Below, in pieces: positions 2,755-63,805 of a stretch of 64,000 bases of DNA. Location of the stretch: assembly GCF_964204645.1 (NCBI RefSeq), contig NC_134028.1, forward strand, positions 25,478,345-25,542,344. Reading direction: 5' to 3'. This DNA comes from Tubulanus polymorphus. Taxonomy: Eukaryota > Animalia > Nemertea. A model generated the notes under the pieces. It was given only the letters and a program-made list of their open reading frames with translations, did no database searches and had not been told where the DNA came from. Position 1 is the first letter of the stretch, and each line of letters starts with the position of its first letter. A program made the translations under genes and the position numbers.

Positions 2755-2968
2755 TGTGAGTGACAGTAGTTATCATTCCAGTAATCAGGTAATAGTCATC
2801 AAAACAAAAATGAAACAACAGGAAGTTATTCACAGCGACCTTCAGTTTGACAGATCGCGCGGCGCAGCCGTCCATTATTCCCATATGTCCCGTTCTATTT
2901 TTAGACGAAGCCGTCCGTTTTTCTGTCATGTCCCTCCACGCGCGGCGGTTCCGATCGCCTGAGTAATT
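2755..2968. promoter_or_regulatory. Compact bidirectional promoter/5' UTR region between the TMC (-) and endonuclease IV (+) start codons
   Basis: The two inferred ATGs are ~215 bp apart in divergent orientation. The region is locally CpG-rich and has an ETS-like CAGGAAGT at ~2819. Confidence 0.55.
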
Positions 2969-5900
2969 ATGGAGATTACTAGGAGAGTGACCAGAACTCG
3001 CGCATCTGAACGACTTAAATTGATCCAGAACGCTGAAGATAGTAATGCTAACACTGATGATGCATCTACTGAGCTAGAAAAGGAGAGAACTGACGTCACG
3101 GTGGTGAAAATGTCAACAATAACGAAGAAGACGAGAAGCCGGAAAATAAAGGAGCCTCCTCCTCTAGCTCCTGTGGAACAGGGAGATGACGTGCCAAAGC
3201 TGGAAGTAAAATCTGTGCCTGAAAAACCTGAGGAATCACAGCCACAAGTTATGTCGAGGCGGAAGGAGAAAAAACCTCAGACTGAAGAAATGGGTGAATC
3301 CTGCTTAGACTTACTGCAGGATGAATATACTACTCTTACTATCGACGTAGTGAATAAACCCGTCACTCGTCAGCCAAGAAAGAGGAGAGGAAAGGAGCCA
3401 GCTACAGTAGTGGAACCTGGTGAGGAAGTTACTGAGGAATCCGGTGAAATAACAAAACCTAAGAAAGCCAAGAAAAAAGAGAAAGTAACCAAAAAGGGAG
3501 ATAAAGAAAAAGAGAACCAGCCTGAAAAACAGATTGAGGAACTTATAGAGGAACAACAAAATGAAAGTGAAAAACTGATTGAGGAAAAGGGAGAGATACT
3601 GATGAATTCCAACTTTGGTAACATGAAGATCACTGATGAATCTGTGGACTTGCAGGATGAATCTACCAGTGTAGTGGATAAACCAGTCACTCGTCAACTG
3701 AGAAAAAAGAAAGGAAAGGAGCCAGCTACAGTAGTGGAAACTGATGAGGAGGAAATTACAATACCTAAGAAAACCAAGAAAAAAGATAAAGTTACCAAAA
3801 AGCAAAGTGAAGAAAAAAAGATCCAGCCTGAAAAACTGGTTGAGGAACAGAGTGAAAAACTGATAGAGGAACAACAGAATGAAGAGAGTGAAAAACTGAT
3901 AAATTCAAACTTTGGTGATAAAAAGATTGAAATAATGACTGATGAATCCAAGGACTTGCAGGATGATTCTACCAGTGCGGTGGATAAACCACCAGTTACT
4001 CGTCAACCAAGGAACAGGAAAGGAAAGGAGCCAAAAATATTAGAACCCGATGAAGAGGAAATAGCTGAGGAATCTGGTGAAATCACAAAACCTAAGAAAA
4101 CCAAGAAGAAAGAGAAAGTTACCAAAAAGCAAAGTGAAGGGAAAAAGAACCAGTCCAAAAAACTGATAGAGGAACAAAGTGAAAAACTCATAGAGGAACA
4201 ACAAACTGAAGAGAGTGGAAAACTGATGAATTCAAACTGCATTGATATAAAGATTGAATCCATGGACTTGCAGGGTGAATCTACAAGTATAGTAAATAAA
4301 CCGGTCACTCGTCAACCAAGAAAAAGGAATTTAGGAAAGGAGCCAGCAGTAGTAGAACCTGATGAGCAGGAAATAACCGAGGAATCCGATGAAATGTCAA
4401 AACATATAAAAACCAAGAAAATAGAGAAATTCACCAAAAAGGGAACCAAAGAAAGAAGGAACCAGCCTGAAAAACAGATTATGATTGAGGAACTGAGTGA
4501 GAAACTGCTGGAAGAACAACAGGATGGACAGAGTGAAAAACCGATAAATTCAAACTGCGGTGATATAAAGATTGAAATAATGACTGATGAATCCATGGAC
4601 TTGCAGGATGATTCTACCAGTGTGGTGGATAGACCACCAGTCACTCGTCAACCAAGGAAAAGGAAAGGAAAGGAGCCAACTATGGCAGTAGAATCTGACG
4701 AAGAAATAACTGAGGAGCCTGGTGAAATCACTAAACCAATGAAAACAGAGAAAATTACCAAAAAGGGAAGTAAAGAAAGAGATAATCTGCCTGAAAAATT
4801 GATGGAACAGAGTGAAAAAGTGATTGAGGAACAGAGTGAAGAACTGATGGCTACAGGCTGCACTGATGTAAAGATTGTAACAAGAAGTGATATGTTTATT
4901 GGAGCCCATGTTTCTGCTTCTAGTTAGTAAACCGTTTGTCTGTAGTGCTTGTTGCATTGATTTCTCATTTCTTTCATCAGTCGTTGTCTCTTACAGAAAG
5001 TATAGTAAACGCAGTAGAAAATGCTGCAACAATTGGAGCCCGAGCATTTGCACTATTCCTCAGATCGCAGAGAAGATGGTTGGCAAAACCTTTAGATCCG
5101 AAAGTAGCCGAGAAGTTTAAAATCGCTTGTCAGGTAAAATCACAGGGGTGAATCTAGAAAATTTGGAAGGCAGGGACCCAGAAGAAAAGAAAGGGCATTT
5201 TCAGATAAAGCAGCCATGTCATAACTGTCCCTCAGTACATTGGTTATTTTTGAAGAAGCATATGCATATATGCAGTATATACAAAGAAAAATTATGCAAT
5301 TCCTGTGCGGATGAGTTTCAAAATTGCATGCATGTATTTTGACATTACATTGTATTCGAAGATTAGAAAAGACGCCCCTGAATCAACTTGGGTATCAGTA
5401 TTTTTCCCATCCCCCGACTCAATTTTTACTCTTTATACATTACCGTGCATAATTCTAAGTGCCCTATGATTGCTCAATTGTTATGATGATAATTCCAGGA
5501 ACACGGTTATAAGCCTTCATTTATCCTTCCACACGGTCCGTACATATTGAACTGCGGCGCTCCTAATGAGGAAATACTAGCGAAGAGTCGAACTTTATTA
5601 TTGGAAGAATTAGAGCGATGTGAAATGTTGGGTTTAACGCTCTATAATTTACATCCTGGTAATAGATCATTCAATGAGAAGTTGAGGATCGAGCCATACA
5701 TGACTTTTGAATGTTAATCAAACTCATTTGTTTATTGATAGGATCGTCGTGTGGTGAGATCAGTACAGAAGAATGTATTAATAAAATAGCAAGCAGTATT
5801 AATTTAGCATTGGAGAAAACGTCTACAGTTACAGTAGGCGAGTAGGAAATACTGACTTATTACTACACAAGGGTGGATTTAGGATTTTTCCAAGGATCAA

Positions 5901-12557: not shown

Positions 12558-14015
12558 TTAAATGATACCCTTTGCTTTCTGTACTTCGTGAATTAGATCT
12601 TTTAAGTATTGAATCTCACGTGTTAACTGATCGACCTGTTCGGTCAACTCCTCGTTACGACCGGTCAACTCTTGGTACTCGACGTCGATCAATTCGGCCT
12701 CCGATTTCTTCTTAACGCGGTACCGAGTCGCCGCGTTCTTATTTTGAAGTTTCTTGCGCTGTTTTTTATCGACCGGCGACGCCTTGCCGGTTTTCGTCGT
12801 CGCCGATTTCAATTTCGGCACGACGACTTTGACGTCGCCCGGACGACAGTATGGCGTGATTCTACGTTTATTCGACGGAGTAGGAATTGCGGGAATAAAA
12901 TCGGGATCATTCGAATCGTCGGAATAAGAACTGAACGACGGAGAAGGCGGATCAGTTAACACTTGGATTACAACAGGTTCCGGATCCACACGGATTAGAG
13001 GAACATCGGTGATAACAACTGAATTGATAGCTGTAAAATCGTGAGACTCCTCAGGAGCACTAGGATTCAGGAGCAGCTCTTCGGGTTCGGATATACCAGG
13101 ATTCAGAAGCTCCTCAGGAGTGCCATGATTCTGGAAAAGCTCCTCACTTGTACCCGGATTTAAAAGAAGCTCCTCAGGAGTGCCAGGACTCAGGAGCAGC
13201 TCCTCGGGTGATGAAGGAGCGTAACTGAAGACCGTCTCATCCGGTGACAGCGGAGAAAAACTATCGTTCCATCCAGAACTGCACGGACTCAACGGTGGTA
13301 ACAAACTCGAATCAGCTGAATCATAACTTGAACACGTGTCCGATAGGAAATCCTGCTCGGCAATCGTCTGCATTAACTCCCGGGCGACTTTCTCGAAGTC
13401 GCCACCTGCTGGCGAACCGGCGAGTAACGGTAGAATACCATCGACCGGTAGAGAGTTAATGAACGATAGCTGTTCATCGATCGTCGACTCGGCGATCGCG
13501 AGTTCCGGGTCGAGCTGTTCATCTTCGGCGCTGTCGTAATGCTGTACGTCGGCGAGTGAATCGAACAAACTCAAATCGAACTGCTGTTCCAGCCAATCGG
13601 TATCAGTTAATCCTGAAAATACATTATGCACATGACAAGTCACGGCACTATCCTAAACCTACTACATTTTTCATTTGGATTAAATGACTAGTTATTTCTG
13701 ATTTCACCATTCGAAGATATTCAATTTAATAATTAAATATATTAAGTATTCCCCTTATCTGTAAGAACCTTGTCTTTTGCTTAAACTAAAAATTTGACTT
13801 TTGCTTAAAATTTCATATTACTGTCTGCAAACTGTGGTTTAGTTTAAATACATACCGGCATCACGAGGATCACTGGTCATTAAATCATCGCTGGCTGGAA
13901 CTTTCTGACCAGTGATCGATGGGATGGCCTTCAGAGCATCTTCATGATGAGGGTCCCATTTAAGCGAGGTTTGGGGCAGAGCCCCGGCTAATAAATTCTC
14001 TACGTATAAACTCAT
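12558..14015 (-). CDS. ATF4: ATF4/ATF5-family bZIP transcription factor, ~404 aa. Coding exons 13856-14015 and 12558-13612
   Basis: C-terminal bZIP DKKQRKKLQNKNAATRYRVKKK...LTREIQYLKDLIHEV and N-terminal DWLEQQFDL motif. The phase-1 intron joins MSLYVENLL...PRDAG to LTDTDW. Confidence 0.9.
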
Positions 14016-15030: not shown

Positions 15031-18164
<3,134 letters not shown>

Positions 18165-20311: not shown

Positions 20312-23300
20312 TCATTTACTACTTGTGGTTACATGGTGCGATGATGCAGTTAACCCTGACAAAACTGTTCCGAAGCTCGACGACGTTAAGCCCACCTGAA
20401 GCGGGGTAGGTGGCAGTGAGGATGGGGCAGATGATGTTAATAAGTACGGTCGGAATGGAGCGGCTGATAGAGCCAAAATTCCAGAATTATTAGAAAGTCT
20501 TGCTCCGTGTAGAACAGGTGTTGGCATCTGCGGAGATGGTTTAATAACGTCCTTAGGGTCGGTTTGTGTGCTGCTACCTGGCGCACGAGAATGTACTAAA
20601 TTATAGGGTCCCGGTCTTTGGACATTGCGAGAATGGCGTAAAACGAATCCCGACCGTTCCGATGCCGTAGTTCTGGCCACTGTATCCCGGAATGCTGCAC
20701 CGCTCGACACTGAGCTATCAGGTTTGAATCTAGTTTGTAAATAGGTCAAGATGCGCACCGATCTGGAATCGTCTGCGACAACTCCTTCGACGTCAGTCAT
20801 GTAACGCAATATTTCTCGCATACAATCGCTATATCCACATTGGTAATGATGCATAAAATCTGCCCAGATATCAGCCGCAAACCATTCTCCTATATCGAAG
20901 AAATAACCAACATTTTATTAGAATAAGAAATCTTTTCTTTACGTGTTTCGAATACTTTTCATTCATCAACTATAAATCTTACCGTTTTCAAAGCGACAAC
21001 CGATTTCTGTATTTTGAATCGCCCTCAAATATTCAACAGTCATTTCCAGAATTTCTGCTTTTTCCAATTTTCCCGAAGACTAGAAATAAAAATTACGTAC
21101 ATTTCAGCTTGAAAATTGAGAACCTATTTAAATAGATTCGATTTAGTAGGCACGACAAATTCTTTAGAAATCGTCAGTATTTTTCTTTTCAAATCGTCAG
21201 TGACACGACTTTAAGCGCACTTCCAAGGAGAACCCAGCACCCTGGATCATGTATGTATAGCATTACGTTTTAAGAAATATTTATCGTGGCAATTTGGATG
21301 AAGAGTGAGGCACGTGTTCGGTTAGGACATAATTATGTTTCGTCACGATATTTCTTTCAGAAACAATCGACTAAAGACAATAGAGAAAGCAAGCTGTGGC
21401 GATACTAGGCTTTTCATGACAGACGTACATTCAATAACACCCCGAGCTGTTCTATGATATAAGTCGTCGTTAAAGCGAACGCCTTTCGCGGATGCGGGCC
21501 CAAAATAGCGTGTAAAAAGTCTGATTTGATTTAACACGTCCACAAAAGCCGTGTCTGCTTAAATGATTGACTTTGAATGGCGTCTCACGCCACATGTTGC
21601 GTCGTGTATATACGATACAACAAACCGCGATGATTGTTGCGCATGAATTGTTTGTTGAAGATACAACAGCCGGTGAAGTGACAATGGAAGATGCTGCCTT
21701 ATAATCTTTACTGTAAATCTCAGCCCCTAAAGCAAAGTTTCGACAAGCTGTGTATGGTAAATACGTAGGTGAATCTAGACGGTTAGATACACAGATTGAC
21801 ATGGATGTCTTCATGAAAATGCAAATACGTATTGAAACATTATACAGAACCATACGATTTACAAATATCTGAGATGTCATTGAGAGGAAACCCACAATAT
21901 AAATCTAAAAGATCTTCTATTGTTACTTTTCCTTACGTTTCGGGTGGAATACTACCACTCAACCTCAGGACTAAAACAATAGCAGTTGTTTAGATTTTTA
22001 TAGCGGATTTTCGCTCAAGTTTTCCCGGATCTCAACACAAGAAACAAATATGTAATGTTTTGTGTTTGGGCTAAGACATGTTGATGGCATTATTCTTATT
22101 GTAAAATCTTCGGAGTTCGTGTTGTCAAGTATTGGTATCAACCTCTCATAAATCGTTCGTACGTTATCTCACCAATGAGAGAAAAAAACCTCATTGGGCG
22201 GATAACATTCGGACCCACTTATTCTCTGAAGCAACTTTAATAATGGATAAAAAACAATGGCTACTCTATACAAAGAGATAGATTTCAAAGAGACTTTGAA
22301 ACGTGCTTCAGCGACGAACACCGGTACACTTGTTTCCGCCTAGTGATTGCCGGTCACGTGACTGGCAGACGTATCAGCACGTGACCGTAACGGCGGTTAC
22401 GCTGGCGCTGTAATCTGATCAACGTCATCAGACACAGGAGCTGCGTTTTTAAACACGTTAGGTAGCCACCCGGGGAACGCGCGTCGTGTATTGTTTCAAG
22501 GCGTGGGTCGTGAAGTTGCACCGCGGTTGCCTGTGGTCCCAATCAAACTGGGGAGCCAACTAATTCAAACATGGTTTGTGCGCAGAGGCAATGTACGATG
22601 GATTGACAGTAGACTGATTGATATAATTCTCAGTATCTAGAGTTAGGTATCAATTTCGGTTTCTAGCTGATGATGGGGGTTTAGTCAAAATTCCGAAACT
22701 ACTGTCTGAGGAATAGTTTAATCATCAGTGGGATTTTACTTATTAGTACGATGGATTCCGAATCCATAAGAATCTACTTAAAGCATATAAAAGATAGTTG
22801 TGCCGTATGATAAAATCAATGAAGAATGCTTACCTGTTTTGCGAATGCTGCGGGTACAGATTGACTTAATTCCGCTAAACAATTGTTTATGCGATCTCGC
22901 CGACGTTTTTCAATCAATTTATGTGACGTTTGTTCCTAAAAAAAACAACAAGATATGAAAATTCAAACGTTCGTTGATAGAAATATATTGTCGGAATATC
23001 GATGTAAACTTCCTGACATCGACAACTAAGTTGCGCGCGTGAAGGTATTCTCTACGGAAGTTGCCCAGGGTCCAGTTTCACGAACAAGTTTAAGCTCAAA
23101 ACGGTTAAGTTTGAATTGTTGTCCTCATTGAAAACATGAAGTAACTAATGGCAATTACACCAAAAATTTGAGTTTAACTTTCTTTGTGAAACTGGGCCCT
23201 GTTTGATAAATTTGAATTATAATTAGTTGTTTGCGGCGAACATCGTATTCTCAACGACTTCAATCTGATTGTGAAACCAGGATTACAATGTATAAACTCG

Positions 23301-23483
23301 TCACACTTAAAAACTTAAATAGGTGAAAAAAACTACAAGGATTTAGAATTGTACCGAATACCGAGTAACATTTAAGAAATAACACTTAAAGTGCTGTGTT
23401 CAAATTCGCTTAAATATATAAATGATTTAAATTAAACAGTTTAGTGCACTTACCATTTTGTCTTTTTTCCTTGAAGATGCCAT
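20312..23483 (-). CDS. HELT: HELT/Heslike-type bHLH-Orange transcription factor, ~268 aa. Exons 23454-23483, 22834-22935, 20983-21079, 20312-20889
   Basis: bHLH [49 protein letters not shown] and Orange domain YQCGYSDCMREILRYM. No WRPW/YRPW tail. Exons total 807 nt in frame. Confidence 0.85.
22660..22713 (+). ncRNA. Type I minimal hammerhead ribozyme-like motif in HELT intron 2
   Basis: tttctag-CTGATGA-t-GGGGGTTT-agtc-AAAATTCC-GAAAC-tact-GTC-tgaggaa. The catalytic core is complete; stems I and II are imperfect. Confidence 0.55.
23068..23200. mobile_element. Short MITE
   Basis: Terminal inverted repeats gggtccagtttcac / gtgaaactgggccc; related degenerate copy at ~58973-59092. Confidence 0.65.
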
Positions 23484-23763
23484 GTTTTGGAAAACTTCAT
23501 CCATATATAAGGTTTATAAGATCCTTCGCGGTTACGGCCGTAGATCAGAAGACGAGAGAAATCCGCTTTGCGGTCTTAACTCAACTATCGTCAGAAATTA
23601 AAATGTGGAAAGATCTCTCGACTGAAGTGATTTATATATTGATCGAATGTTTGAGATGGGAGGGATCAGTGTTTGGACAAAGAGAACACGTCGAGTGACA
23701 TTTGGATATGTGGCGCGTGTTCGAACGACGGCCGTTCGTCTGCGCATATGATGCCATCTTAGT

Positions 23764-24107: not shown

Positions 24108-26143
24108 AGATCTTATCAACTATACTTGCGTTTCTTTTTGTGGAATTTTTCTAAACCTCGCTACACAAACTTAATTATGTTCTACACGACTGCCCTAACG
24201 AGACTCAGCTTAACTCCCCCCCCCCCCCCCAAGTATCAGGTGCCGACGTCAGCTCGTTGGCAAAGTTGCATCAGGCGACCCCTTTGTTTTATATCAACTA
24301 GTATTTCTGTCTCCAGCGGCCTGGACGTAAGCCAACATCATTCATAATACACGAGATACAGCGCTCAGAACTCAGAACTCGGCAACCGGGTTTTGTGATA
24401 TTTCAGAATAAAATATAATTGATTTTGAGAAGGAAATGCATGACGTTGTAGCAGACACGTGCTATCGTCTGCAACACGCATGGTAACGCACACTGCGCAC
24501 ACCGCATGGCGCGTCATCACATCATCCAGCTCTTCCTCTCTTATCATCATTGATTTGATCGCATTAGATAATTAGATCCTATGACCCAAATATGCATGAG
24601 ACAATCGTTGCTTATGGCCATCTTCCCGGTGTCCGTGGCTGGAGTGCATTGTGCGTGAATCAGTGAGACTGTGATTAAATAAGAAATTTAGATTTATTGT
24701 GAATGTCTCCCAGACCAGGTTCTATATGCCCGTGAGGTTTGAGTTACAGTTGAATCAAATCCTGAAGGAAAAACTTGGAGCTAAATTAAACGCTTGGTTC
24801 TAAATCCACCGGCGGTCCACCTTCCGAAATTGAATGGAACATCATTAATCCATTCTGGCGGAATCGTTGTGTACAATTATCTAATCGTTTGTGCCATTCA
24901 GCAAATGTCTAATCAAATCGATCACCATCAGGGGTTGAAGAGGGGAAGGTTCATGGTATTAAAACTAGTTTTAAACAGGTTGATAAAGCACGTGGAAATT
25001 TGGACAGTATAGTAAATAGATACGATTGTAACCTTTTGTAGCGTAGGTGATGACAGGCGCGTTTAATTTTTTTTTTCAAATTTATCTCAATGGTCCTGAC
25101 AGAGCGGCACCATCTGGTAAAGGATGGGGAGGGGCATGATCCAAAGTTTTGCCAAACTATCTTTGGCCGTATATATTCCTCTTGTGCCAAGTGGGTGTTG
25201 TCATTCTTAATATGCATGAAGTGTTCCGTAAGCATACGTAATAGTCGCGGAACAACCTTTACATCAGGAGGACATCAAGCAGAGGCGTCAGTTATCTGTA
25301 AGTATCATTATAGGGCGTTCAGTCTAGCGTTGGAGTCACTTCCCAAGAGAAGTTAGCAAAGGCCGGAAAATCATTTTCAACCATATGATGTAACTACAAT
25401 CGACCGTCAGAATTTTCGAAGACTAAAACTCGAGATTTTTGCATGAGAAATGAGTTTTGTATTTTCACGATGAGAACATGATTTTTTCAACTTTTTTCGA
25501 TCAATATTTTCATTTCAAAAATTACACATAATCTTAACGAAGATGACAATCATTTTAAATACGAGGGTTACATATTATGGCAGATGATAAAGCATGCAAA
25601 AATGTTTTCACCCGGAAGCCATCTAGCGGAAATATACATCATTTTATACATGTACAACGATGTCGCCATATTAAAATTCACATTAAATAATCCAAGACAT
25701 GAAGACAGTGCATAGAAAGTGTTCATTAACAATCAACACAGACTTTCAGCAGATTTAAAAAATCGAATCAACGCATAGATGAAACTCGATCTTCAACAGC
25801 CTTTTGATACTTCATTATCAATTCACATTCAATAATAACGTGTACACGCATTAAAGCATCTTTAGTAAGCGCTTTGAATGTTCAACAACAAGGCTTAATT
25901 CACGTCTCATACATAGCGAGCACTAATAACAAATAAAACATTTTCATACAACCAATTCAATATCATTAATGAAACAAACGCATGATTAAACATTTCTATT
26001 CGATTAATATTCAACATAAAATATTTAGACATAGAATAAACATATACGGCTCTTTTAAAATTGAAATTTTCACTCAAAATGCCCATTGTTTCTCACAACG
26101 GATCAGATCTAGGAAATAAGTCTCTTCCCTTAAATTTACAACG

Positions 26144-29100
26144 TCAGTCGACGCATTTATCCACCTGATCTGTTCCGGATTGTGAAACTTTTCTAAGTAA
26201 CGTTATATCCGACATAGATAACGGACTCTCATCGCCCGATTCTGGAACCGAGCTACGGTGACCGGATGATGTTGTACTAGTAGTTGTTGTAGATGGCGCT
26301 TGCGTTGCTGGCTCCGCTTGTTCAGACGGTCCGAATCCCGGTTCCAACGATTCTTCAGGACTCCTCATCGACGGATACCCGAGTTCTGACGGTAGAGATA
26401 AACTACGATCTTGTTTGGTTCTGACCGACGGTTCTTCATCGCTGCACTCAATTCCTCGCTGTTCGACCACAGTTTGATGAGGATGTTGATAGGCGGCACC
26501 CGTTCGCGTTTGGTAACCGGTGTTTGGCGGTTGGGGTTGGTACCCAGTCGGCGGCTGGTGGTAGTTACCTGTGGGTTGTGAATGGTATGAGCCTGGTTGT
26601 TCAGGGTTAATGGAATGGAATGTTTGAGCCCGGGCGACTTGAGGATGGAACTGATGATGTTGTTGTTGAGCCGGTTCACTGACGCGTCGTACACTGGTGT
26701 TCATATCGTATTGTTTATAAGCCGTCTGCTGGTCTACGCTGTAACCATGATGACTAGCGTATTGATTACTAGCGACTTGTTGTGGCCCGTAACCGCCCGG
26801 GGCAGGCGGTCCGGTATATCTTTGGACACTAGCTGGTTGACTAGCTAGATGACCTTGTGTTGGTAAAGGTGTTGGTTGAGCGCAGTAGTTAGTTAAAGAC
26901 GGCCGCTCTTCACATCTCTCTAAACCTTGTAAACTCGATGTGCTCCCCGTTCTGACTGATAGATTCAACGACGCAATATTTGGAATATCTTTATGAGCCG
27001 ATGTTAGACATTCTTTCTTCGGAGGCAAACTCTCTTCTGCTGTTCCGGCTGAATACGGAGGGGGAGGTGGTTGAACCGGCTGAGGGCCGTAATTTACCGG
27101 GTAGAACTGGTATTGGCCACCGGGGGGAATCTGTGGCTGGTAGCTATACGGAAAGTTTTCATAAGGCATTCTCGCCGGAGGTGGACCAGGCGGGAACGTG
27201 CCTCTATCTGCGGGATTAACGTACGGAGGGTATCCGTATTGAAGAGGATACATCCCCGCACCGGGGTACTGCGACGTCCCGTACTCATGCACCATAGCAT
27301 TTTGATGATATTGCTGCTCATTTTGGAAACGCTGTATTTCAGATCTATTTTTCGCGGCGAGCACCGTCGCCACGCCATCCAGTAACTGTTTCGCCGCGGC
27401 CTTACATTTGACGAGCGCGTCGTACGCCTGACCGACGGTAAAATCGGCGTCTTGATCTAACGCCCATTCGATCACGGAATCAGTCGGACTTGAGTCCTGT
27501 TTCTTGACGAGGAAATCGCGAATATAGCTGATATAATCGGCCGGTATTCCTAACCCTTCGGCCCAATCTTCCCAGTTAGCAGCCGTGCCGGCACCGGTAG
27601 TACGATCCAATCTCATCTTTAACGAACGACGAGTATCTTTGTTGATCTCGCATAATTTCGCCGACCGGATTACAGCTACAGGAACACCCTTTATATCCTG
27701 AAACGAGACAGAAATATAGAAAATTTACTTGAAAGTTTATCAACGCCTTCAAAAATATCACAAATATTGCGTAATATCGTCGACAATACATAATACAATA
27801 TCAATCATGTGATAATATAAAGGATCAATGAAGTTATTTTGGATTTGAATATATCGATAATTGAAGAATTGAATTAGCCGGCAACCAGTCTAACACTGAT
27901 ATATCGATGATGTAGTATGTATGGTCTCAAAAAATCAATTGTTAAAATCTATCTAAAAAGAAATAAGAGTTATGAAGAAGTACACTTAATCACAAAATAA
28001 ACGCCTAAATTCACAATTGTTATTTTTAAACGCTTATATTGATGACATAGTGCACATTGACTCACACACAACATTACTCTTCATTTAGCTGTAGCATTTG
28101 CTTCAAAGTTTATCAGTCAATGCAGCAATTACTATCTGGACTATGAACTATGAACATTTCCTTTTATTTATAACAAAAAAAAAAAACAAGAGTCAATGGG
28201 ATATTATCTACCACTAGGTGATACCAGACAGGACGACTGATTATTGTGGACTAAATATCAGTTCTAAAAAAGGCTTTCATTCTAATATTCAGATAATGCT
28301 AGACCTAGAAGCTGCGTTCTTCAACACTTTCAAGAATAACTACTTTCTAGAAATTTGCTATTGATAATAAGATAGATTAAGCAGCAGGCATGAAAAAACC
28401 CTTAAACAGTAGACAGAAACAGGTGGGGGAATAATGGAAGAACTTCTGTTGTTGTTTCTAATGGAATTTAATAAAAATGTCCTTCTACGACTTGAAGTTA
28501 TTTTCAGAGCTCTTAGCGGAAGGCATTTATATGTATTACGTGCATTATATTCATTTAATTAACTGTTCGTGTTTACAATAGAAACATTTTATTTCTAATT
28601 CCAAGTATCGACTGGTATTAAGTGTATTAATCGCAAGAGAACGCGCCCCTGGGAGATCTGCATATCGAGAGCGAATCGCTTTTATTTTTTCGAGCTGCCG
28701 TCGATATCACATGAACGTTGAATCACATCATTTTCTACGACGAATCAATTCTGATTTCGATGAAAGTAAATAGAGATAGTTATAGGTCATTACAGTAGAG
28801 CAGCATACGCGGTCTGCGGTTACCCTGTCGCTTAATTAATTCCTCGTCGAAAGTTCCAGAGTAAAAATCTCTTCATAAAAACCCAACAACGCAAAGTGCC
28901 AGTAGTGTGGGTTTAACCTGATTGTGAGGGGTCAATATTAGTTCATTTTCTTGTTACAAAATATATGCAGCCTAAAGTGGATTTTCAAAAAGGCACTTGG
29001 TCAGAAAAGGGGGAAGGCTCTGGAGTCACCACTGGAATGCCAAAGCCTCTCTAATAACCAATTCCTGTAGGCTGTTAAGGTTTTAAAGTAATCTATAACT

Positions 29101-32100
29101 TATCACTGTTGACTCAATATATAATATATCAAATTTATAAATGCAGATAATCAGACATGACACTGATCTTTATAGTTCAAATAGTAGAACAGGAAAACGC
29201 TAAATGAACCGTCTGATATATAGATAAACGAAATATTCTAGATAGATATGATTATACTATGGTTCACGATGGCTGCAATAACATTCCGAGTCCTTGAACT
29301 CGTGCCGTAATTCAAAACATATTGCAATGGGAGATTGGCAAAAAATAAACATATTAAACAAATAACTACATCAGACAACTACATCAGACACGTCAATGTG
29401 TAACAGATGCGTCATTCATAATAATAACTCTCTCCAACGACTCTGTGGGTTTACAGTGGGTTTATATAGTCCACCATGACACTCAGCACTTACGAGTTTT
29501 ACATACCTTAATCATAGGTTTCATTGTGTCCGATGAGTGCGCGTTTTCTCCTGAAAATATGAATAATTTCCAAGCGTCAATGAATAATATTTAACCACGG
29601 AACTTCGACACTACTACGCACAGATATCACCACGAATGAAGGATTGTTTGCATAGCTATAGTATCAATAATATGAACTATTCACCACACCGCGCACTACA
29701 AGTCAACACTGCTCTACTGCTGGTGGTTTTTCCAAGAATGCCAGATCGGACCCTGCGGTTAGTCACAGCATGTTGTTTGGGAATTTCCCATGTGAGAATT
29801 ACGAAGGATTGTCAATACACCTTGGATTGTCAATGGGTTTTTCCCGTGATTTATAAAAAGGCTATTCAATAATGGTTGGATAGTGTAACATGTTGAAACG
29901 GTGGTGAAACGCTCATATTGTTGTTCCCTCCCATTTATTCCAATAGAAGCTGAATTATTTCCAACCTTGATCTAGATCTTAACAATATTTAGTAGGTCGA
30001 ACGAGAATATTTAAACGAAAACTCAATGCCAATCATAGACAGCCTGTTTCTAATTCTGATCACTTACCACTTAATTCATCTATCAAATCATCATCACCAT
30101 CATCCTCATTATTATTGCCATTTTCATCCTGTAAAATAAAACACAATGAAGCTTTAATCTCATGAACTTTTTGAATGTTACAACATGAAATCAAGCGGCT
30201 ACTAGCTCAAAGTTCTAGAAGTTTCATTCCGTTACAATCTTCCTTTGAACTTATACTACGCGTACCTATTGATTTTTGTTTTAACTGAAGGATGTCCTGT
30301 CGTGTACCAAAATATCTAGTTATAACCGAATGATGTCCCAAAATATCTAGTCTGGATTTGCGCAGAACTTTCCTACTTCACGAACAAGTCGAAACACTCA
30401 TATATATAGCTCAAAATACTTCTCTTTGTCAACATAAAACCAGTAAAAACACGACACCGGTTTATATCCGTTCAGTATAGGAATATATGTCAGCAAATCT
30501 ATTGTACGACGTACAACATTATCAGACATTCATAAAGCATCCTGTATCACAAACACTAACAGGGTCACAGCGACTCCAATAAACCTACGTAAAACAACCC
30601 TCATTAAAATTATTTATTAACACGCTCGCTCGCGTAAATGTACTATTTATGATAATGACTTCTCATTTCTTGCACATCATGTGATATTTTCAATCAATTC
30701 CTCGTTTGCGTAAATGAACAAAAATCGAGTGTATTAAACAGAATTACGAAGAAAATCGATGATTAGTTACGCAGAAGTTAACAACGAACAACGAAGATTT
30801 TTTCTTATTTCCGTGAACTGTGATGCGAAACGTATACAAGAAATACTTCCATCTGAGCAAAAATGATAAAGATAACATCGCTTTTAAAATACTAAAATAT
30901 CACGGTGCAGAGTGATATCTATATGGTAGGTATTCACCTATCAACCCTTCCAATACTACAATACATTCTATAAGACCTACGAGCAATTGTTTAGATAATT
31001 GCTCGTAGATAAGACAGACTGCTAGTAGAGCTAGGGCCCTATGCCGAAGAAAAGTAGTCTCTAACCAGGGGCAGATCCAGGGGGATTCCTGGATGTCTCG
31101 AATCCCTCTGAAAAAATTGTTTTCCTTTTAACTCGACTATTCCAAATCATTCTTAAATTTCATCGGTTAAAAGCAGGAAAATGCATCCGGAGGCTTCTAT
31201 TTTCTAGGCCCCCGTCCGGTCCAAAAACAATTTAGCAGCTACACAGCTGATTAACATTAACCTTGCAATCCACCCCCTCATGTTTAGTCCAGGATCCGCC
31301 TCTGCAACAAAACAACATCTATCCTAGTTAAAGAGGATTGGGCAAATTCCCCACCGCCAACTTACTGAAATAAATGGAAAGACTTCTAAATGATGAATAT
31401 CCTAACAACGAGGTCTGAAGTACAGCAGTAATGATTATAGGCTGTATGTATTAACGACCTTTGAGTTTAATTGACGTCATACATTGATAGACCACGTTAG
31501 ATTGACTTAGATATGATAGAATTCACAGCAACAATAATCAGAGAAAAACCTGCGGAAACCATTAATTGTATTCTAACACAGAACTTTTTGATTAATTACA
31601 CATGAATTTAGTAGAAGCATTTTGTAATGTATGAATTTGATATTTGATCTCCAGTAGACCATTGAGACCAACCACGTGGGATCTCGGGAACTTGGATGCC
31701 CCGTCGAGACTGGGTCCTTCACCTACTGAAGATGTCCGGTGGAGGCCACAAGTATAGCTATACACCTGTTTGTTGTATAGGTTTCCGGGATATTAGGGGC
31801 CATGTAGTTATTTTCAAGTATAAAAGCACCAGTTCGAGCAGATAATAATATAATATCATACAATTAAAAGGAATCAGAAAGAAAACTCATTGGAAAACAT
31901 TAACTCATTTTTGGAAATACGGAGCACAAGTTTATGAGCTTAGGTATCAGTTAAACATTTTTCACTTTCCTGGCAACTTGACATTTTTAGCCCCCTACAC
32001 CCTCCTCTTGGAACCACGCCAGCAATCGGCCAATTGAAGACGGTAAATTCTTACCAGATTTTCTTCTGTGTCGTTTCCGATGTTCAAATCACATCCATTT

Positions 32101-34035
32101 TCGATTACGGCGTCTAAACCTTTCACTTGACACTTCTCTCCGAGCGCCAACTTCACGCGACTTTCCTTACATGCCAGAGCTGCTTCGTACGAGTAACAGA
32201 TCGGATTATCCAACAAATCGAGGAATTTTAAACTCGCGAAATCGTCCTCATTAAATACGACTCGATCGATGAAATTCTCGGTGATGTAGAGATGAGTGAG
32301 GTTCGGGAGCGCGCGAACTTGACTCGGAATTTCTTTGAAGTTATTCCGACAGAGTCCGAGTTCTTGTAAATTCTCGAACTGACCGATGTTCGGCATGTGA
32401 GAAAAGTTATTCGTACACAACGACAGCAGCGTCGCGTCGCGTAAACCTTTCAAAACTTTCAGATAGAAATTCATCGTGTTTCGATCCTCGGGTTTCAGAT
32501 CGCCGAGCATCGCCGAATTGCACCACAGCTTCAAAACCTTTTTATCCGGCCATTGTTTTTTCTTTTCCAAATTATGCCCGTCTTTCATGAACTGCAGCGC
32601 CGCGCCGCGACTGTAACTCCACACGATCTCGTGGTTTTCGTTCGGTTGCAGATTGCAGAATTCGCGTACGCGCTCCTGCAGGAACTCTTCGAGGACATTC
32701 TCTTTGAATTCCATCGCCTCGCCGTAGTAGTCCATACGCAGCGTTTTCAGATTCTTCAACGAGCAAATAAACTGCGGGAACTCGTTCTCCGGTAAATCAT
32801 TTCCGGTGATATCGAGAAACTGTAAACTCTGTAATCGGCGAATGTGCAGCGGGATGTGATCGATTTTCGCGAAACTGATTTCGAGATGTTTCAGTTTTTT
32901 AAAACCGTGGAGATTATCGATGACATCCTCGGCGTCGATCTTATTTCCTTTCAACAATAACTTCTCGATATTGCGCAATCCGTGATTCCTATTCATCGGT
33001 AAACTGACTAAATTATTCGTCGATAGATCGAGAACTTTTAACGTTTCCGGCACGACCAGAGTCTTAATGTCATCATCGGAGAGATTGTTACTTTCGAGAA
33101 TTAGTTCTCGCAGTTGTTTGAAAGTTTTGAATTCGTGAAGACAGGAGTTCAATTTGTTGTTTTGACAGTTCAATGTTTTAACGATATTGCGGTCGATCGG
33201 GCGTCCGTTAGCGTCTTTCTTCACTAAACTACGCGCGTTTAATTTCCCGATATAAACGTCCTGAACTGATGTATTCATATCGGCCTTGTACCGTTTAACC
33301 ATCAACTTTCTGAAACAAAAATCATACACATTCATTCATGTCCCATTGAAATATGAATATAAATATTTAAGTCTGCTTATTTTCATCCGATCATTTTCAA
33401 TATGAGAAAAAGAAGACTTTTAGCAATCCTTCAATACAGTGTAAAATGGACATAAAAACAATGGTTTATTCTGCACTGCAGTTTCACTGGTCATATTGAG
33501 ACCAAATTGAGATGTGTTCAAAAGCTTGATCAAAAATATTGATCCCAGATAAAAATAGATAGACTTTAGCTATATTTTTTAGGGAAAACCTTATTTAGCC
33601 TATACTCAGTGACGGTGAAGAATGAGATTTTCCATTTCAAAATTTATTCATAGGTTTTTGATTTGGTTTAAAAGAATCAGAACAAAATCTGATGGATTTT
33701 GTTAACGTTAGTTGCCAAATCGTTGGTTGTAAGCATTTGTAATCAGCTGGGCTTAGGAGTGAATATACACCTACGACACGTACGATCGATTGATTGTGAT
33801 TGGATTAAAAACAGACCACACCTTTATGCCGGCATAAATTCTTAAATAAGATAAAATGACAGCTCAATACGAATAACTCACAATATACGATTATATCTTA
33901 CCGTAATAATGAAGTTGGTTTCTTTGTCTTGCGCTCATTTATTGAAGAATTATTGCGTTTTGAACGGCGATTTTTTACTTTCCATTCTCGTTCGGATTTG
34001 CCTTCATCGCGATGTAACGACAATTTCTGAGCCAT
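26144..34035 (-). CDS. LRR + death-domain protein with P/Q/Y-rich tail, ~1015 aa. Exons 33902-34035, 32055-33309, 30068-30128, 29507-29550, 26144-27697
   Basis: LxxLxLxxNxL repeats in exon 2. Exon 5 has the death-domain pattern RRSLKMRLD..NWEDWAEGLG..I..I..SPTDSVIEW..TVGQAYDAL. All four introns are GT-AG with matching phases (2,0,1,0), giving 3048 nt with no internal stop. The single-gene model is an inference; each domain-coding exon is individually well supported. Confidence 0.72.
29724..29845. promoter_or_regulatory. Intronic cluster of NF-kappaB-like sites in the LRR-DD gene
   Basis: GGGAATTTCCC (29779-29789), GGGTTTTTCCC (29835-29845) and TGGTTTTTCC (29724-29733). Confidence 0.55.
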
Positions 34036-34208
34036 CGTTTTGGCAGAATTTCCTTTAGACCCTTCCTTATTGAATTATCCGAAATTATATTCATTCTGAA
34101 AAATCTCTACGCTTTTACTTCACGCTTCATATCTTCTGAGTCAACAAACGACGATTATTCTAGCTTATCTAGTTTACGTCCAATAAGAGTAAAGACTAAA
34201 AAAGGTTT

Positions 34209-36504: not shown

Positions 36505-39500
36505 TTATGCTGGTAAACTTAGCTTCTTGCCTTTCAGAACTGAAACGAAAAAAAAAAACAACAAATATTATAGCTTCCAATTACAACTACACTGTAGTGG
36601 CGGGGGGGGGGGCTGATAATAGTCTTAGTTCAGTATTATCCAGTCTAGACTACCTGATATCTCAAATTGCAGTAATTTTCACAAAAAATCTGCGTAATTT
36701 GCATCAAGGGACACAACCATGCAAATGTAGTCAAAACTCTGGTCAGTAAAAATGAACTCACTGATAACTCGTTACGGATGATTGTAGTATATTTACCTTT
36801 AGTTATATACAAATAGAAGAAATCGCAGTAGAGAATCGTCTGAACGCAGCCGGCTACGATCGCTATCAGGTCGAAGAATCCCTCGAAATAATATCGATAA
36901 ACCCAGTTCAAAATGTAGAGGGCTCGATAGGAGCCGAGCGCGAACAGGTAGTGACTGGTGATCGTTTCAGCTTCGCCGGTTTTACTGACCATAAACAACT
37001 GCGGTAAAATAGCCACCGATTCCAGATAGATCGAAAACGTCCACAGAATCTGAAACACAGCGTAAACATCACGATTAATACAATCCAATTTGCAATTGAA
37101 TGTGGCAATTGCCGATCCACCAGGTGGCGAAAGTGTGCATAAGGAACAAAATATTTTGCCGAAGTCCTGCATGATCATAATTTTGTACATAATTTAAATC
37201 TGTAAATTTTGTATTGTCCCTCTAATACTACCCTCGAGCCCATTACAGACCTGTAAATAAATGAATCAATTCACAATGAATCACAAAATCAAACTTTCTT
37301 TTGACACATGAGCCCGAACCAAGTCCGATTTAGAGATAGTCTGTACAACTACAAACTACACAAACATCTTTAATTCTGCTTAGATCGAAAGGAGTTTCAA
37401 ACACATGTAAAAGCATTTTCTGCTTTGAAGGAGTTTTTAAGGAGGAAACACAAGGAGTCGTAGGGACCCTGCCGAATAGCTGGTTGCATCATTAGCTTTA
37501 CCTCAAGTGGACTGAAATCATGGTTCACCAGCAGAGCTAAACCGGCGACTGGAACAACGAGGAATTCTACGCGGAAGGTATCGTGATTGCTGTCGTACGT
37601 CGCCTTGAACTTGGAATAGATCATAAACACGGTGGCCAGCGAACAGGCGATGAACACGCATTTCATGGACGTATTGTAAACCGACACAAAACTAGTGATC
37701 AGATCCAAATATCGCGTCAGGAAAACCATCGCGAACATGATCTGCGACTTTCCGGAGATACCTGAAATAATTCGAGCAAATCGATCAATAAATTACCAAA
37801 ACAAAATAGACTTGAACTCGCTTTTAAAGTTGTTATGGCTGGGAGACGGATGATCATTATGAAGACGACTTTAATACCCCCTATCGAAATGACGACTTAA
37901 CGTTCAGTTTACTGAATCAGAAGAACAAATTAGGACTTCAAAATATCGAGGACCGACTTTAAAAGTAATGTCATCATTAATCCGCTGATAATGGAATTAA
38001 CTGAATTTGACATCTTTTGAATTACAGGTAAACAAAGAACTCAGTTACGCAGTCAAGACATCGGATTTGAGGCTGTTTTGTTTCTGTATGAATATATGAT
38101 ATAAGATTTCAGACCGTTTTTGGAATATGACATCCGTGGATTGGAAAAAATAAACATTCAGATTAATTTCTTCATAATGATTGAATCAATGATATCAATT
38201 ATACGAAGAGTACATTAAGTAGCAGCGTCTGTAACACATGTAGGTCAATCAATAGGACGACACTCGGTAGAGATGCTGGTACTGTCAATAGACTGAATTA
38301 TCATATTCAATAAATATCGCATTATGAGGGACACGACTAATAAAATATTGTATTTAGACTCGCCGTTTTAATTGATAAATAGACGGTTGTAACATCTTGA
38401 GGAACCTGACAAAAACCGGAGCATGTGTCACACGTGGAAGTATGTACGTGGCTCTAAATGAATACCAGCTGCTAACACTAACTAACCATCTATCTATAGT
38501 CAACTACCGGTACCTGTGATCAGATACATACACTCTCATTCATAATCAATAGAATACTGGGCATAAAAATCTAATATTATAGAGGAGTGAATACGCAATT
38601 CGATACTAAATGAACCGGGCCCGATTTCAAAGACTAGTATCAAAGTTCCCCCCCTCCGGGTAAATCGTAAATGTGGGTCCAATTTCATAGACTTCAGGGT
38701 CCGATCTAAGCACTTGTCCGATTGCACGGGACAAGTATATTCTCATCAGGGCAACCTTTCTCTGAATGCAGCCCCTTTCAAATTCGAGAGCGTGTAGAAC
38801 ACTGATATAAAGTAATGACAAACCCTTGTAGGGCCTATTAAATTCTGATACATTTTTTGCTTCCAAATCTATGAAACTCAGCTATAGTCATAAATTGAGT
38901 AAAGAAGAGCTTTAGAACTACAACTAAGACTAGCTTAAAGGCCTAGCCCAACATAAATTTTTCGGTTTGTCGGTCTGAACGACAGGACAAATTTTCCAGT
39001 CCTGGTGTCTTGATGGATAAAGGGTGTTTCACCCTGACAGGTTCAAACCCATGCGTTCCAACTTCAGGTTTGCACAATCAGCTTTTGAATAAATTACTGC
39101 GTTACTCTCAGTCTTGGTTTGGCACAAATAACGCAAACTCGACACATTGGTGCAGGAAAGAGATGATGATCACACAGACATAGAACAACAAGAATTCAGA
39201 GAAAATAAGGGCATAACTAATATGACTGACTTCAATACTTAATTAAAAGCAAGATTATAGTAATCTTGGTTTATTTGAGACTTCGAGAGTAAGCTTTAAA
39301 AGCTCAACCCAAATATTGTGTATAAGCTACTTTTAAAGGTTTTAGCTCACAAACGTGACCCTGCACTGGTCTCCCACTTCACTAATTCTTATCGTCTTTT
39401 GATTTGAACAAAATATGCCCGCTGCCAGTGGTATTGGTGCAGTTACTAGTTACTACACAAGTCCTCCGGAGTCACTCAGCTCAGAAAATTAGCAGCTTTA

Positions 39501-40010: not shown

Positions 40011-42283
40011 CGAAAAATGAGCGCAAAACTTAAATTTTGCTTGTAAAATAGACGCCATTAAGTTCAAGGTTATGATGATGGAAGCATACGACGCACCATC
40101 GCATCCAGAGGGCCAGCTTCATAGAGTTAACTCTTAAATCGATTTATCCATTTGGATTAATTTTATGAGTTAAGCTTTTTTTCTGACTGACTGGACCCTT
40201 ACATAAAGCGGACATATTGTCAGATTCAATCACTTTCTTTCAAGAATGAAATGAAACCAAAAACAACAAAAATTTTGAACATTTTAATTACATTTTATTG
40301 TATGGCCACACATAATAAATCATCAATATCTATTGATATCATGTAAGCATTCTTTGTTTAGTACACGTAATAATCTACTATGTGATTCGGTCATCATTCT
40401 TAGTGGTTGATCACATGTGCTGTATGTTTCCTAATGAACTTCCTGAACGAATACAATTCAAAAATACTCATTAAAAGCATCACATTAATTAATCTGCCCG
40501 CCACTATTCGAATGACCAAATACACAACTACTTTAAACTATAAACCAATCAACATTACATCAATCAGTAGCTTTTTTACATTTGTGCTCGGTTAATTCAC
40601 ACAGTTATCAGAGTTTTCAGTTCTACAAAGCTGAATTATCAATATTTACCCACGACAAACATTCCAATAAAGTTATTCCTGGTGATTGCTATAATCTAGC
40701 TTCGCGAAACTGGGCATGAAAACTTTGCCGAAGACAAATCATGCTTGCATGTGAACTATAGTCTCCATATATCACAATACGTCATGTAAACACATATTAT
40801 ATATTTCAATATCTAGGGAAAACAGAATGAAGCCGGCAGGAATAATGTAATAATATAGCTACGCTTGTCACTCACACAAATCTCTACTCATTCTCGTGCA
40901 AACATCGAGCTAAGAAGCCAACAACACACATGATAATTATTATACAACCATTTTAGCGAATATCCCGTGCATATTCCTTAAAACTAATCACCCTAATTAT
41001 ATTTACAAATAATACAGTTCGGCAATCCGTTCCTAAACTCGTTACAGAGAAAACTTTTACTTTTTTAACATAGTCTATTTCCCTGTGATGAACAATTACA
41101 AATATTTCTACTAAGTATTTGCCTAGCCACAGCGAGTAAGGTCGAGTCTACATTGTATTACGGTTACAATACATAAATGTAAATTGTAAGCTAGTGGTAC
41201 ATCGATATACATCGGCACAATCTAATTATATATACACTAAAGGTTTTTCCGTTTTAATGGTAATTTTGATGTTACACATATATTATCTACTCGCTATAAT
41301 TCACATCATTGAGTCTATTATCATATATCATACACAATTCATATGCAAATACTTATAATGCAATATCATATATATATATATATATTTATAATATATAATT
41401 TTCTATAATATGTACATAATCTATATAGACATATTCTATACATACGTTTATTTTTAATATTTGTATTTAATATTGTCATCACAGCTAAAATGAAAACTTT
41501 GAAGAGAGACAAGGACGTCACTTCAAATTGCGTGTTTCGAAGCCTATCCATCGAATGGCTTTTAAGTTACGTATCTATTTGACTAGTATTTGTTGATATC
41601 GTAAACATTGCAAAGCCTAAGGAAGCCTTTATCATACATTATCATTCTGCATATTATCGTTATTATCATCAAGGCTTATTCATAGTTATTGCTACAAAGC
41701 TTTTAATTCTACATAGAATATGATATATAACATCAATGGTTTTTAGTGCAAGTATCGCTGATAACCGACAGTTAGTATTCACATTGAAGCTGATTGCTGG
41801 TAGTTTCGGTTTGAGAACATAACATATCACAACTTCAATTGCCACTTACTAACTAACAAAAATCTTGAAAAAAATATATATCGTCTAAACTAAACCACAA
41901 CCGAATCCCAATAGATTGCGATTTAAAATGAAGCACCAATTTACTTTGAATACTTAATAAGAAAAAAAACAAGAAAATTCCATCTTTACAATAACTAGAA
42001 ACAACACAAAAATTGCGAAAAAAAAAACCATTGATTTGATTGCCCCGGTGAAGATTTTGTTGTTTTTGGGAAGAATTTACCATTTCAGAGTGGAATCCAA
42101 GTTCGAATTAACCTAACGCTAATGTTAATGAAGACGGTATATTTACTTGTTACTTTACAATTTGAACGAATAAAGGCTTTTCATAATCGCTTCACGCAAC
42201 GAATGAAAAGTTTCTTTTCAACAGATTCTGAAACATGTTGTTTGACTAGAGTACATATTACCGAAGTAGTTACCGATATTCTA

Positions 42284-42548
42284 ACACACGCAGACAGACG
42301 TAGACACACGCAGACAGACGTAGACACACGCAGACAGACGTAGACACACGCAGACAGACGTAGACACACGCAGACAGACGTAGACACACGCAGACAGACG
42401 TAGACACACGCAGACAGACGTAGACACGCAGACAGACGTAGACACACGCAGACAGATGTAGACACACGCAGACAGACGTAGACACAGGCAGACAGACGTA
42501 GACACACGTAGACACACGTAGACACACGCAGACACACGCAGACACAGA
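42284..42548. repeat. 20-bp minisatellite (~13 copies, degenerate at right end), just downstream of the WDFY3 stop
   Basis: Unit acacacgcagacagacgtag. Confidence 0.95.
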
Positions 42549-42686
42549 TTACGAAACCCGTGCATAGAATAATCTATTAATTCTCTGAGTAGTAGTAATA
42601 TATCTATATACATTCAATATAAGATTCTATCCATCGTGAATATGAATACTATTATACGCTGGCCCCCCCTACGCATTCCAATCTCA

Positions 42687-63805
<21,119 letters not shown>

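Follow-up and report, generated by a model that had tools for sequence, protein, structure and literature searches.

In a 64,000-nucleotide stretch of the genome of the nemertean Tubulanus polymorphus (RefSeq assembly GCF_964204645.1, contig NC_134028.1, positions 25,478,345 to 25,542,344; hereafter the window, with positions counted from its first letter), the minus-strand gene LOC141903727 was found to encode a protein of 1015 amino acids (aa) in which leucine-rich repeats (LRRs), a very probable death domain and a low-complexity tail with three clustered TRAF6-type motifs follow each other in this order. The five-exon gene is confirmed as real and spliced. From its sequence and by analogy with known signalling proteins, we tentatively propose that the product is a cytosolic one-chain death-domain scaffold which would recruit TRAF6 and drive NF-kB/AP-1 output, with the LRR region as the likely input gate.

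Gene structure and splicing

A preliminary description of this locus had proposed that two open reading frames (ORFs) 4.4 kb apart are joined in frame by micro-exons of 61 and 44 nucleotides (nt). In-frame joining yielded coding exons at 34035-33902, 33309-32055, 30128-30068, 29550-29507 and 27697-26144, together 3048 nt, which encode the 1015 aa plus stop without internal stop codons. All four introns are of the GT..AG type, and the canonical donors quoted earlier (CTG/GTAAGA, GTG/GTAAGT and AAG/GTATGT, with the slash at the exon border) are among their sites. In the 4.4-kb gap, nine candidate acceptor/donor pairs with a pyrimidine tract were listed, the best sites being those of the two proposed micro-exons. 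The matching phases are as had been described. They carry little weight on their own, since exons 2 and 5 can likewise be connected in frame when both micro-exons are skipped (980 aa); inclusion of only one of them leads to a truncated protein of 523 or 472 aa.

The structure was settled by contigs from sequencing runs. In run X2, contigs skipped all four introns at the predicted sites. Joints 27696/29506, 29549/30067 and 30127/32054 were each spanned by one contig with the identical depth value of 520.3 and therefore appear to lie on a single contig that connects the LRR exon, by way of the two micro-exons, with the death-domain exon; joint 33309/33902 had a depth of 183.4. At joint 32055/30128 the overlap on the LRR side was 30 letters, one below the 31-letter bridging rule of the tool, and the whole coding sequence was covered by no single listed contig. 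Among the four runs compared, X1, X3 and X4 had depth 0 at all four joints, and long contigs of run X1 passed through the introns. Run X2, whose library is not on record, was counted as RNA because its contigs skip introns. The micro-exon model was thereby upheld, the junctions originally named (32055/30128, 30068/29550 and 29507/27697) being seen in X2 and not in X1, X3 or X4. As an X2 contig reads through the stop codon, no exon for a TIR, SEFIR or kinase domain follows in the main transcript. A shorter 3' isoform was not claimed on the basis of contig depths that rise towards the 3' end (183, 520, 845), since contig depth cannot rank the parts of a gene.

The protein is letter for letter identical with RefSeq entry XP_074648086.1, 'uncharacterized LOC141903727' isoform X1 of T. 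polymorphus, so that the gene is not hidden as had been thought. Isoform X2 (XP_074648087.1) is the same protein starting from Met48. The domains precomputed by RefSeq comprise LRRs only; death domain and motifs are unannotated. The RefSeq model is not independent support, as it may derive from the same RNA runs.

The leader contains two out-of-frame upstream ATGs at 34130 and 34094, which give a 7-codon upstream ORF and a 39-codon upstream ORF overlapping the ATG at 34035. Judging from sequence, these ATGs could make initiation at Met1 less frequent and that at Met48, where isoform X2 begins, more frequent. Coding differences were taken from the rows listed (40 of 109 plus 40 of 98, coding and non-coding), and among these 12 of 23 were synonymous compared to 22-28% expected (P 0.001-0.013); for the part comprising LRRs and death domain the count was 8 of 12, for the tail 4 of 10. 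The three PxExx motifs are left unaltered by the differences listed. By this measure the reading frame is under purifying selection. In the DNA-like runs, intronic stretches at about 27810-28040, 30980-31180, 31880-31990 and 33400-33480 reached very high contig depth with numerous loose ends; they represent dispersed repeats.

A very probable divergent death domain

Residues 505-606 very probably adopt a divergent death fold, as had been proposed, and four sequence tests point to this family. Pfam Death (PF00531) was matched at profile positions 2-75 of 86 with an E value of 0.051, just behind a chance-level match to pPIWI_RE_Y (E 0.031). Of the 30 Atlas matches, 23 fell into the Death set (top score 0.92 with 190 shared features; Death on 21% of the cluster members). 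A phmmer search over 1.84e9 proteins returned three matches: the protein itself, a protein with three death domains (E 3.8e-4) and, as best non-self match, a repeat-rich TPR/STAND protein of prokaryote type in which the similarity was spread over six repeat stretches. With a local profile of six Pfam-positive death domains, a score of 30.0 bits was obtained versus 9.9 for the best shuffle (2000 shuffles, 1671 reported) and -1.4 for the reversed sequence, the profile being partly circular in that its seed proteins had been found with this query. The nearest death-domain relatives found, P0075 and P0077, have three death domains in tandem behind a disordered N-terminus.

By eye, the domain looks MyD88/IRAK-like, in agreement with the preliminary description, and its subfamily was left unplaced. 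The pattern SPT..W..TVG..D.L..A..LL is common to it and the IRAK4 row of a published alignment, and RR.L...A.W..AE, in the first two helices, to it and the MyD88 row (PMC8564539 supplement); this comparison covers six human rows and is not quantitative. Single-sequence AlphaFold2 gave six helices for the death domain at a predicted local distance difference test (pLDDT) value of 43.8, too low for a usable model, and Foldseek with this model retrieved no match at E<=0.001. The 968-aa isoform, modelled without alignment, was likewise unusable (pLDDT 33.7). A Protein Data Bank (PDB) search with a two-sequence death-domain profile gave two matches, both by chance. The complex of LRR region and death domain, also predicted without alignment, scored 0.00, which carries no weight either way.

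Tail and TRAF6-type motifs

The 395-aa tail is successively rich in Pro/Tyr/Gln/Gly, in Gln/Pro/Ser/His and in Ser/Glu/Thr. It contains one PPxY at aa 710, a motif that could recruit NEDD4-type ligases. Its three PxExx(aromatic/acidic) motifs lie at aa 934, 945 and 955, and the second of them overlaps a TRAF2/3-type SxEE at aa 944; PxExx[FYWHDE] also occurs once within the LRR insert described below. When the tail was shuffled 10,000 times, globally and locally, three motifs within 27 aa arose with P 2.4-3.6e-4 (about 3e-4) in what was a post hoc test, and a comparable cluster was present in none of 72 other collected proteins, a weak control as most of these are folded LRR proteins. The cluster exceeds chance in this test, and its TRAF6-type motifs are putative docking sites.

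LRR region, linker and absent domains

The basic N-terminus, the acidic linker and the low-complexity tail of the first account were all recovered. The N-terminus is polybasic (net +11 over aa 1-47) with stretches resembling nuclear localisation signals and is lacking in isoform X2. The LRR region was found as described, with about 11 repeats; these do not form a single solenoid of about 400 aa and instead make up two blocks around an insert of about 95 aa. BLASTP of aa 236-340 against the collected proteins matched only LOC141903727 records. The LRR exon resembles repeats of the SHOC2/LRRD1/Leptospira type, and LRRD1 was among its top solved-structure matches. The linker encoded by the micro-exons comprises 35 aa (net -10), and about 75 aa separate the last LRR from the death domain.

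No hydrophobic segment was detected over the protein (best 19-residue Kyte-Doolittle mean 0.93). At E<=10, the whole protein matched nine Pfam families, all of them LRR, and no TIR, SEFIR, NACHT/NB-ARC, ROC-COR, kinase or ZU5/UPA family. A motif scan for P-loop, DFG, HRD, HFS and RHIM core found none of these. Together with the transcript that runs through the stop codon, these results agree with the earlier statement that transmembrane helix, TIR, NACHT, kinase, ZU5 and ROC are absent.

Relatives

The searches for relatives were limited by search words and by length, and absence is therefore weak evidence. In the death-domain search among longer proteins, one of 949 candidates was retained, LOC141903727 itself. 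A combined LRR and death-domain search, which covered LRR-only relatives from 558 aa upwards, returned 69 of 7991 scored candidates; the 68 others are generic LRR proteins with 22-38% identity, and Death is in the listed domains of none. The profile search returned two of 7990, none with the full architecture, and a metagenome scan gave 73 pattern matches of which none was confirmed. There is no second LRR-death-domain copy in the 64-kb window.

Run X5, from another study under the same species label, contained a 1490-nt contig that aligns with 32113-32735 and follows exon 2 colinearly, the offset being 601 nt in each. The contig is strongly diverged; when its two loose ends were translated by hand, the frame was kept and the sequence resembled the LOC141903727 protein. 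A diverged relative of the LRR half therefore exists, either in a cryptic sibling species or as a paralogue. In the literature, no paper was found on LOC141903727 or on an LRR-death-domain-TRAF6-motif protein, most subscription papers lying outside the coverage, and the available parts of PMC11874512 and PMC8662601 do not mention this architecture.

Proposed function and alternative explanations

In the proposed scaffold, the LRR arm, tethered by the acidic linker, would block death-domain assembly at rest. A ligand of the LRRs, for which a protein of host or microbe is more likely than a small molecule of microbial origin, would nucleate assembly; alternatively, the trigger might be docking onto the death domains of MyD88, IRAK or CIKS. 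Assembly would crowd many PxExxZ motifs and provide the avidity required by TRAF6, whose ubiquitin chains would then switch on NF-kB/AP-1. The Gln/Pro/Tyr-rich spacer may aid condensation and the basic N-terminus, present in isoform X1 only, may target membranes or the nucleus; both suggestions are guesses. Direct microbial sensing by the LRRs is doubtful. Comparably doubtful is the boldest version, a natural single-chain signalosome in which a cytosolic LRR sensor would couple ligand-triggered death-domain polymerisation to direct TRAF6 recruitment and dispense with NACHT ATPase, TIR adaptor and IRAK kinase, as a counterpart in nature of the engineered protein CHARMS. It would have arisen by exon shuffling, the exons for the LRRs and for the death domain meeting at phase 0. 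NF-kB-type sites were rejected as evidence, as three matches at 29779-29789 and 31080-31089 compare with 2.96 expected in the window. Both places, the only exact NF-kB-consensus matches of the window, lie in LOC141903727 introns; their count corresponds to chance.

The scaffold proposal draws on the architecture and its splicing, the sequence tests for the death domain, the motif cluster, the purifying selection on the frame and the parallels with CHARMS and ancestral CIKS/Act1 described below. Several observations weigh against it: (i) the Pfam PF00531 match reached 14.1 bits, below the gathering cut-off of 22.6, and the death domain by itself matched no PDB sequence at E<=10; (ii) the LRRs are of a generic protein-binding class; (iii) with the whole protein, the top two Atlas clusters, at 0.91, were LRRD1, the nearest look-alike thus being axonemal; (iv) in tail shuffles, at least three motifs anywhere in the tail occurred with P 0.02-0.03 and at least one with P about 0.45, and the cluster test was, as stated, post hoc; (v) the TRAF6 motif is of low complexity, with 5185 matches across the disordered parts of the human proteome (bioRxiv 2022.05.08.491058); and (vi) an orthologous tail was not found in the searches described above.

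The strongest alternative, itself unlikely, is that LOC141903727 is a modulator rather than a sensor. Its death domain would join Toll or IL-17 complexes downstream of a membrane receptor, where the protein would act as an amplifier or as a TRAF6-sequestering decoy similar to IRAK-M, and the LRRs would serve as a SHOC2-like scaffold. The lack of a receptor-coupling TIR or SEFIR and of a kinase fits this, as do the generic LRR class and the PPxY, through which NEDD4-type ligases could be brought in. Inhibitory death-domain partners do exist, since Pelle and IRAK4 of amphioxus dampen CIKS1/MyD88 signalling and the death-domain-less CIKS2 inhibits (PMC11087794). Conversely, three motifs would favour activation if the dose rule of CHARMS holds. 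The present observations do not separate such a modulator from the one-chain scaffold.

It is less likely still that the protein is a non-immune LRRD1-like scaffold, for example of cilia or sperm, in which the death domain would serve for packing and the TRAF-like motifs would be incidental. The domain order is the same, and to the Atlas result is added the rank of LRRD1, an axonemal protein of the C1b projection, among the solved-structure matches of the LRR exon. However, the two LRRD1 clusters shared 151 and 144 features, under the 170 typical of same-family matches, and the E value of 1.4e-14 to mouse LRRD1, ranked below two Leptospira LRR proteins, indicates generic similarity, while a Fasciola LRR-death-domain protein bearing the LRRD1 name reached 8.8e-81. 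Because of this difference, the far fewer repeats and the long tail, LOC141903727 is, on sequence criteria, not an LRRD1 orthologue. Moreover, LRRD1 has no such tail, its death-domain row, inspected by eye in the alignment, does not contain SPT..W..TVG, and the motif cluster would be left unexplained.

Improbable, too, is a scaffold for stress or cell death in the manner of PIDD1, with a death domain that would recruit a caspase adaptor of the RAIDD/FADD type instead of TRAF6. N-terminal LRRs, a death domain and a basic N-terminus with nuclear-localisation-like stretches would be in keeping with it, and FADD and Dredd are present in the nemertean Lineus ruber (PMC9835746). Against it stand the missing ZU5/UPA (Pfam) and HFS, the short stretch that separates the death domain from the last LRR, and the appearance of this domain, by eye nearer to the IRAK4 and MyD88 rows than to those of PIDD1 or RIPK1. 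Least probable of all is that the helical module is another bundle or a decayed domain, the protein being an LRR orphan whose tail is disordered: the Pfam score below cut-off, with pPIWI_RE_Y ranked just above Death, the TPR/STAND protein as best phmmer match and the unusable single-sequence model would fit, but the four sequence tests point to Death, the helix order predicted at low confidence is compatible with six helices, and the TPR match is scattered.

Features and neighbouring genes

Coordinates of LOC141903727 features in the window
Feature	Position	Strand	Evidence
Exon 1: 5' leader from about 34140, coding ATG 34035, aa 1-45	33902..34140	-	X2 contig, spliced to 33309
Exon 2: LRR region and C-terminal cap, aa 45-463	32055..33309	-	Pfam LRR_8 (E 4e-17), LRR_14, LRR_4
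LRR block 1, about 7 repeats of 23-25 aa, aa 88-240	32724..33182	-	
Insert of ~95 aa between LRR blocks, aa 241-336, one degenerate repeat at aa 303	32436..32723	-	
LRR block 2, 4 repeats, aa 337-427	32163..32435	-	Pfam and repeat inspection
Micro-exon 3, 61 nt, acidic linker aa 464-484	30068..30128	-	X2 joints 30127/32054, 29549/30067
Micro-exon 4, 44 nt, linker aa 484-498	29507..29550	-	X2 joints 29549/30067, 27696/29506
Probable death-domain core aa 521-596 (whole domain about aa 505-606), start of exon 5	27404..27631	-	
Low-complexity tail, aa 621-1015 (395 aa)	26147..27331	-	composition; no Pfam family
Three PxExx(aromatic/acidic) TRAF6-type motifs, aa 934, 945, 955	26312..26392	-	
3' untranslated region	25801..26143	-	X2 contig 25801-27124; RefSeq X1 same stop

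The neighbouring genes are ordinary, all on the minus strand, and do not form an immune cluster in the window. They include a presumed bZIP factor similar to ATF4 (12558-13652), what we take to be a class III-like alcohol dehydrogenase (15147-17876), a Hairy-Orange bHLH gene (20312-23500), a KDEL receptor recognised by Pfam (36645-37792) and a BEACH/WD40 gene that is presumably WDFY3-like (43762-63188). ORF pieces at 703-2337 (minus strand) resemble, in our estimation, a TMC (transmembrane channel-like) gene and match no such Pfam family. On the plus strand, a Glu/Lys-rich ORF of 654 aa at 2963-4927 has no Pfam family and consists of five repeat units of ~103-112 aa, with an anchor motif at aa 133, 241, 344, 447 and 559. 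Tandem repeats at 42181-42613 and 51748-52161 yield spurious repetitive ORFs.

Comparison with known systems

The order of LRRs followed by a death domain without ZU5, NACHT or ROC had been regarded as undescribed, which is not supported. PIDD1 and the NLRs had been considered; LRRD1, which has this order, had been overlooked, and LRRs followed by a death domain also occur in LRR-DEATH-kinase proteins of amphioxus (PMC9573974). In human LRRD1 (860 aa), the LRRs occupy 187-742 (PMC9573974) and the death domain 777-857 (PMC8564539 supplement); LRRD1 is located in the C1b projection, which belongs to the central apparatus of sperm (bioRxiv 2024.08.06.606614). Like LOC141903727 it has LRRs and then a death domain, and no transmembrane segment, ZU5, NACHT, ROC or kinase. 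In contrast, its array is long and unbroken (about aa 150-745) and the protein ends at the death domain, whereas in LOC141903727 ~11 repeats are split into two blocks, the death domain looks like those of MyD88/IRAK, and 395 aa of tail with the TRAF6-motif cluster follow it. The amphioxus proteins, also of an invertebrate and with the LRRs directly followed by the death domain, carry a kinase in place of the disordered tail.

In PIDD1 (LRDD), LRRs, ZU5-ZU5-UPA and a death domain follow each other. It resembles LOC141903727 in being cytosolic with N-terminal LRRs and a death domain; the latter protein lacks ZU5-ZU5-UPA and HFS motifs, and its death domain is not C-terminal. NLR and ROCO proteins differ by their NACHT/NB-ARC, ROC-COR or P-loop, IRAK, Pelle and Tube by an N-terminal death domain with kinase or pseudokinase (internal and kinase-free in LOC141903727), and MyD88 by its C-terminal TIR, none being recognised here by Pfam. 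Ancestral CIKS/Act1 (TRAF3IP2) of the T1 type has the order Death, TRAF-binding middle, SEFIR, and amphioxus CIKS1 binds MyD88, Pelle and IRAK4 (PMC11087794). Common to both is a long region behind the death domain, with TRAF-binding sites in CIKS and putative motifs here; the differences are the SEFIR after this region in CIKS and the LRRs before the death domain in LOC141903727. As it lacks a defining feature of each, the protein is not a member of LRRD1, PIDD1, NLR, ROCO, IRAK, MyD88 or CIKS. In favour of the proposed scaffold, MyD88, IRAK and NF-kB are present in L. ruber, another nemertean (PMC9835746), and scallop LRR-only proteins of the cytosolic type are reported to bind microbial molecules (review PMC5877582).

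The modules, the order of LRRs and death domain (LRRD1, PIDD1, amphioxus kinases) and the gene model were thus already known. Not found elsewhere in the searches made was the union of LRRs and death domain with a clustered TRAF6-motif tail and neither enzyme nor TIR, which is in evidence in only one lineage. The question raised is whether an LRR region alone can gate death-domain assembly and TRAF6 recruitment, i.e. act as an NLR-like cytosolic sensor without NACHT. If it can, the protein would represent a minimal design of receptor, and this in a phylum for which intracellular immune receptors have hardly been described; otherwise it would be a lineage-restricted adaptor, missed by automated annotation because its death domain lies below the Pfam threshold.

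A synthetic protein of nearly the same design signals in mouse cells, so that the question can be tested in an existing assay. CHARMS, engineered from MyD88 and three IRAK1 motifs, replaces MyD88, IRAK4 and IRAK1; it needs both death domain and motifs, its output scales with motif number, and death domain plus PxExxZ motifs suffice for kinase-free activation of TRAF6 and NF-kB (bioRxiv 2024.05.08.593169). LOC141903727 shares with CHARMS and with the IRAK1/IRAK4/MyD88 system a death domain and three PxExxZ motifs in a C-terminal tail. It has neither kinase nor TIR and carries an LRR region in place of the receptor-coupling TIR, and its motifs are 10-11 aa apart whereas those of IRAK1 are spread over about 160 aa (bioRxiv 2024.05.08.593169). 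By analogy, LOC141903727 may work like a fused adaptor of the IRAK1/CIKS type.

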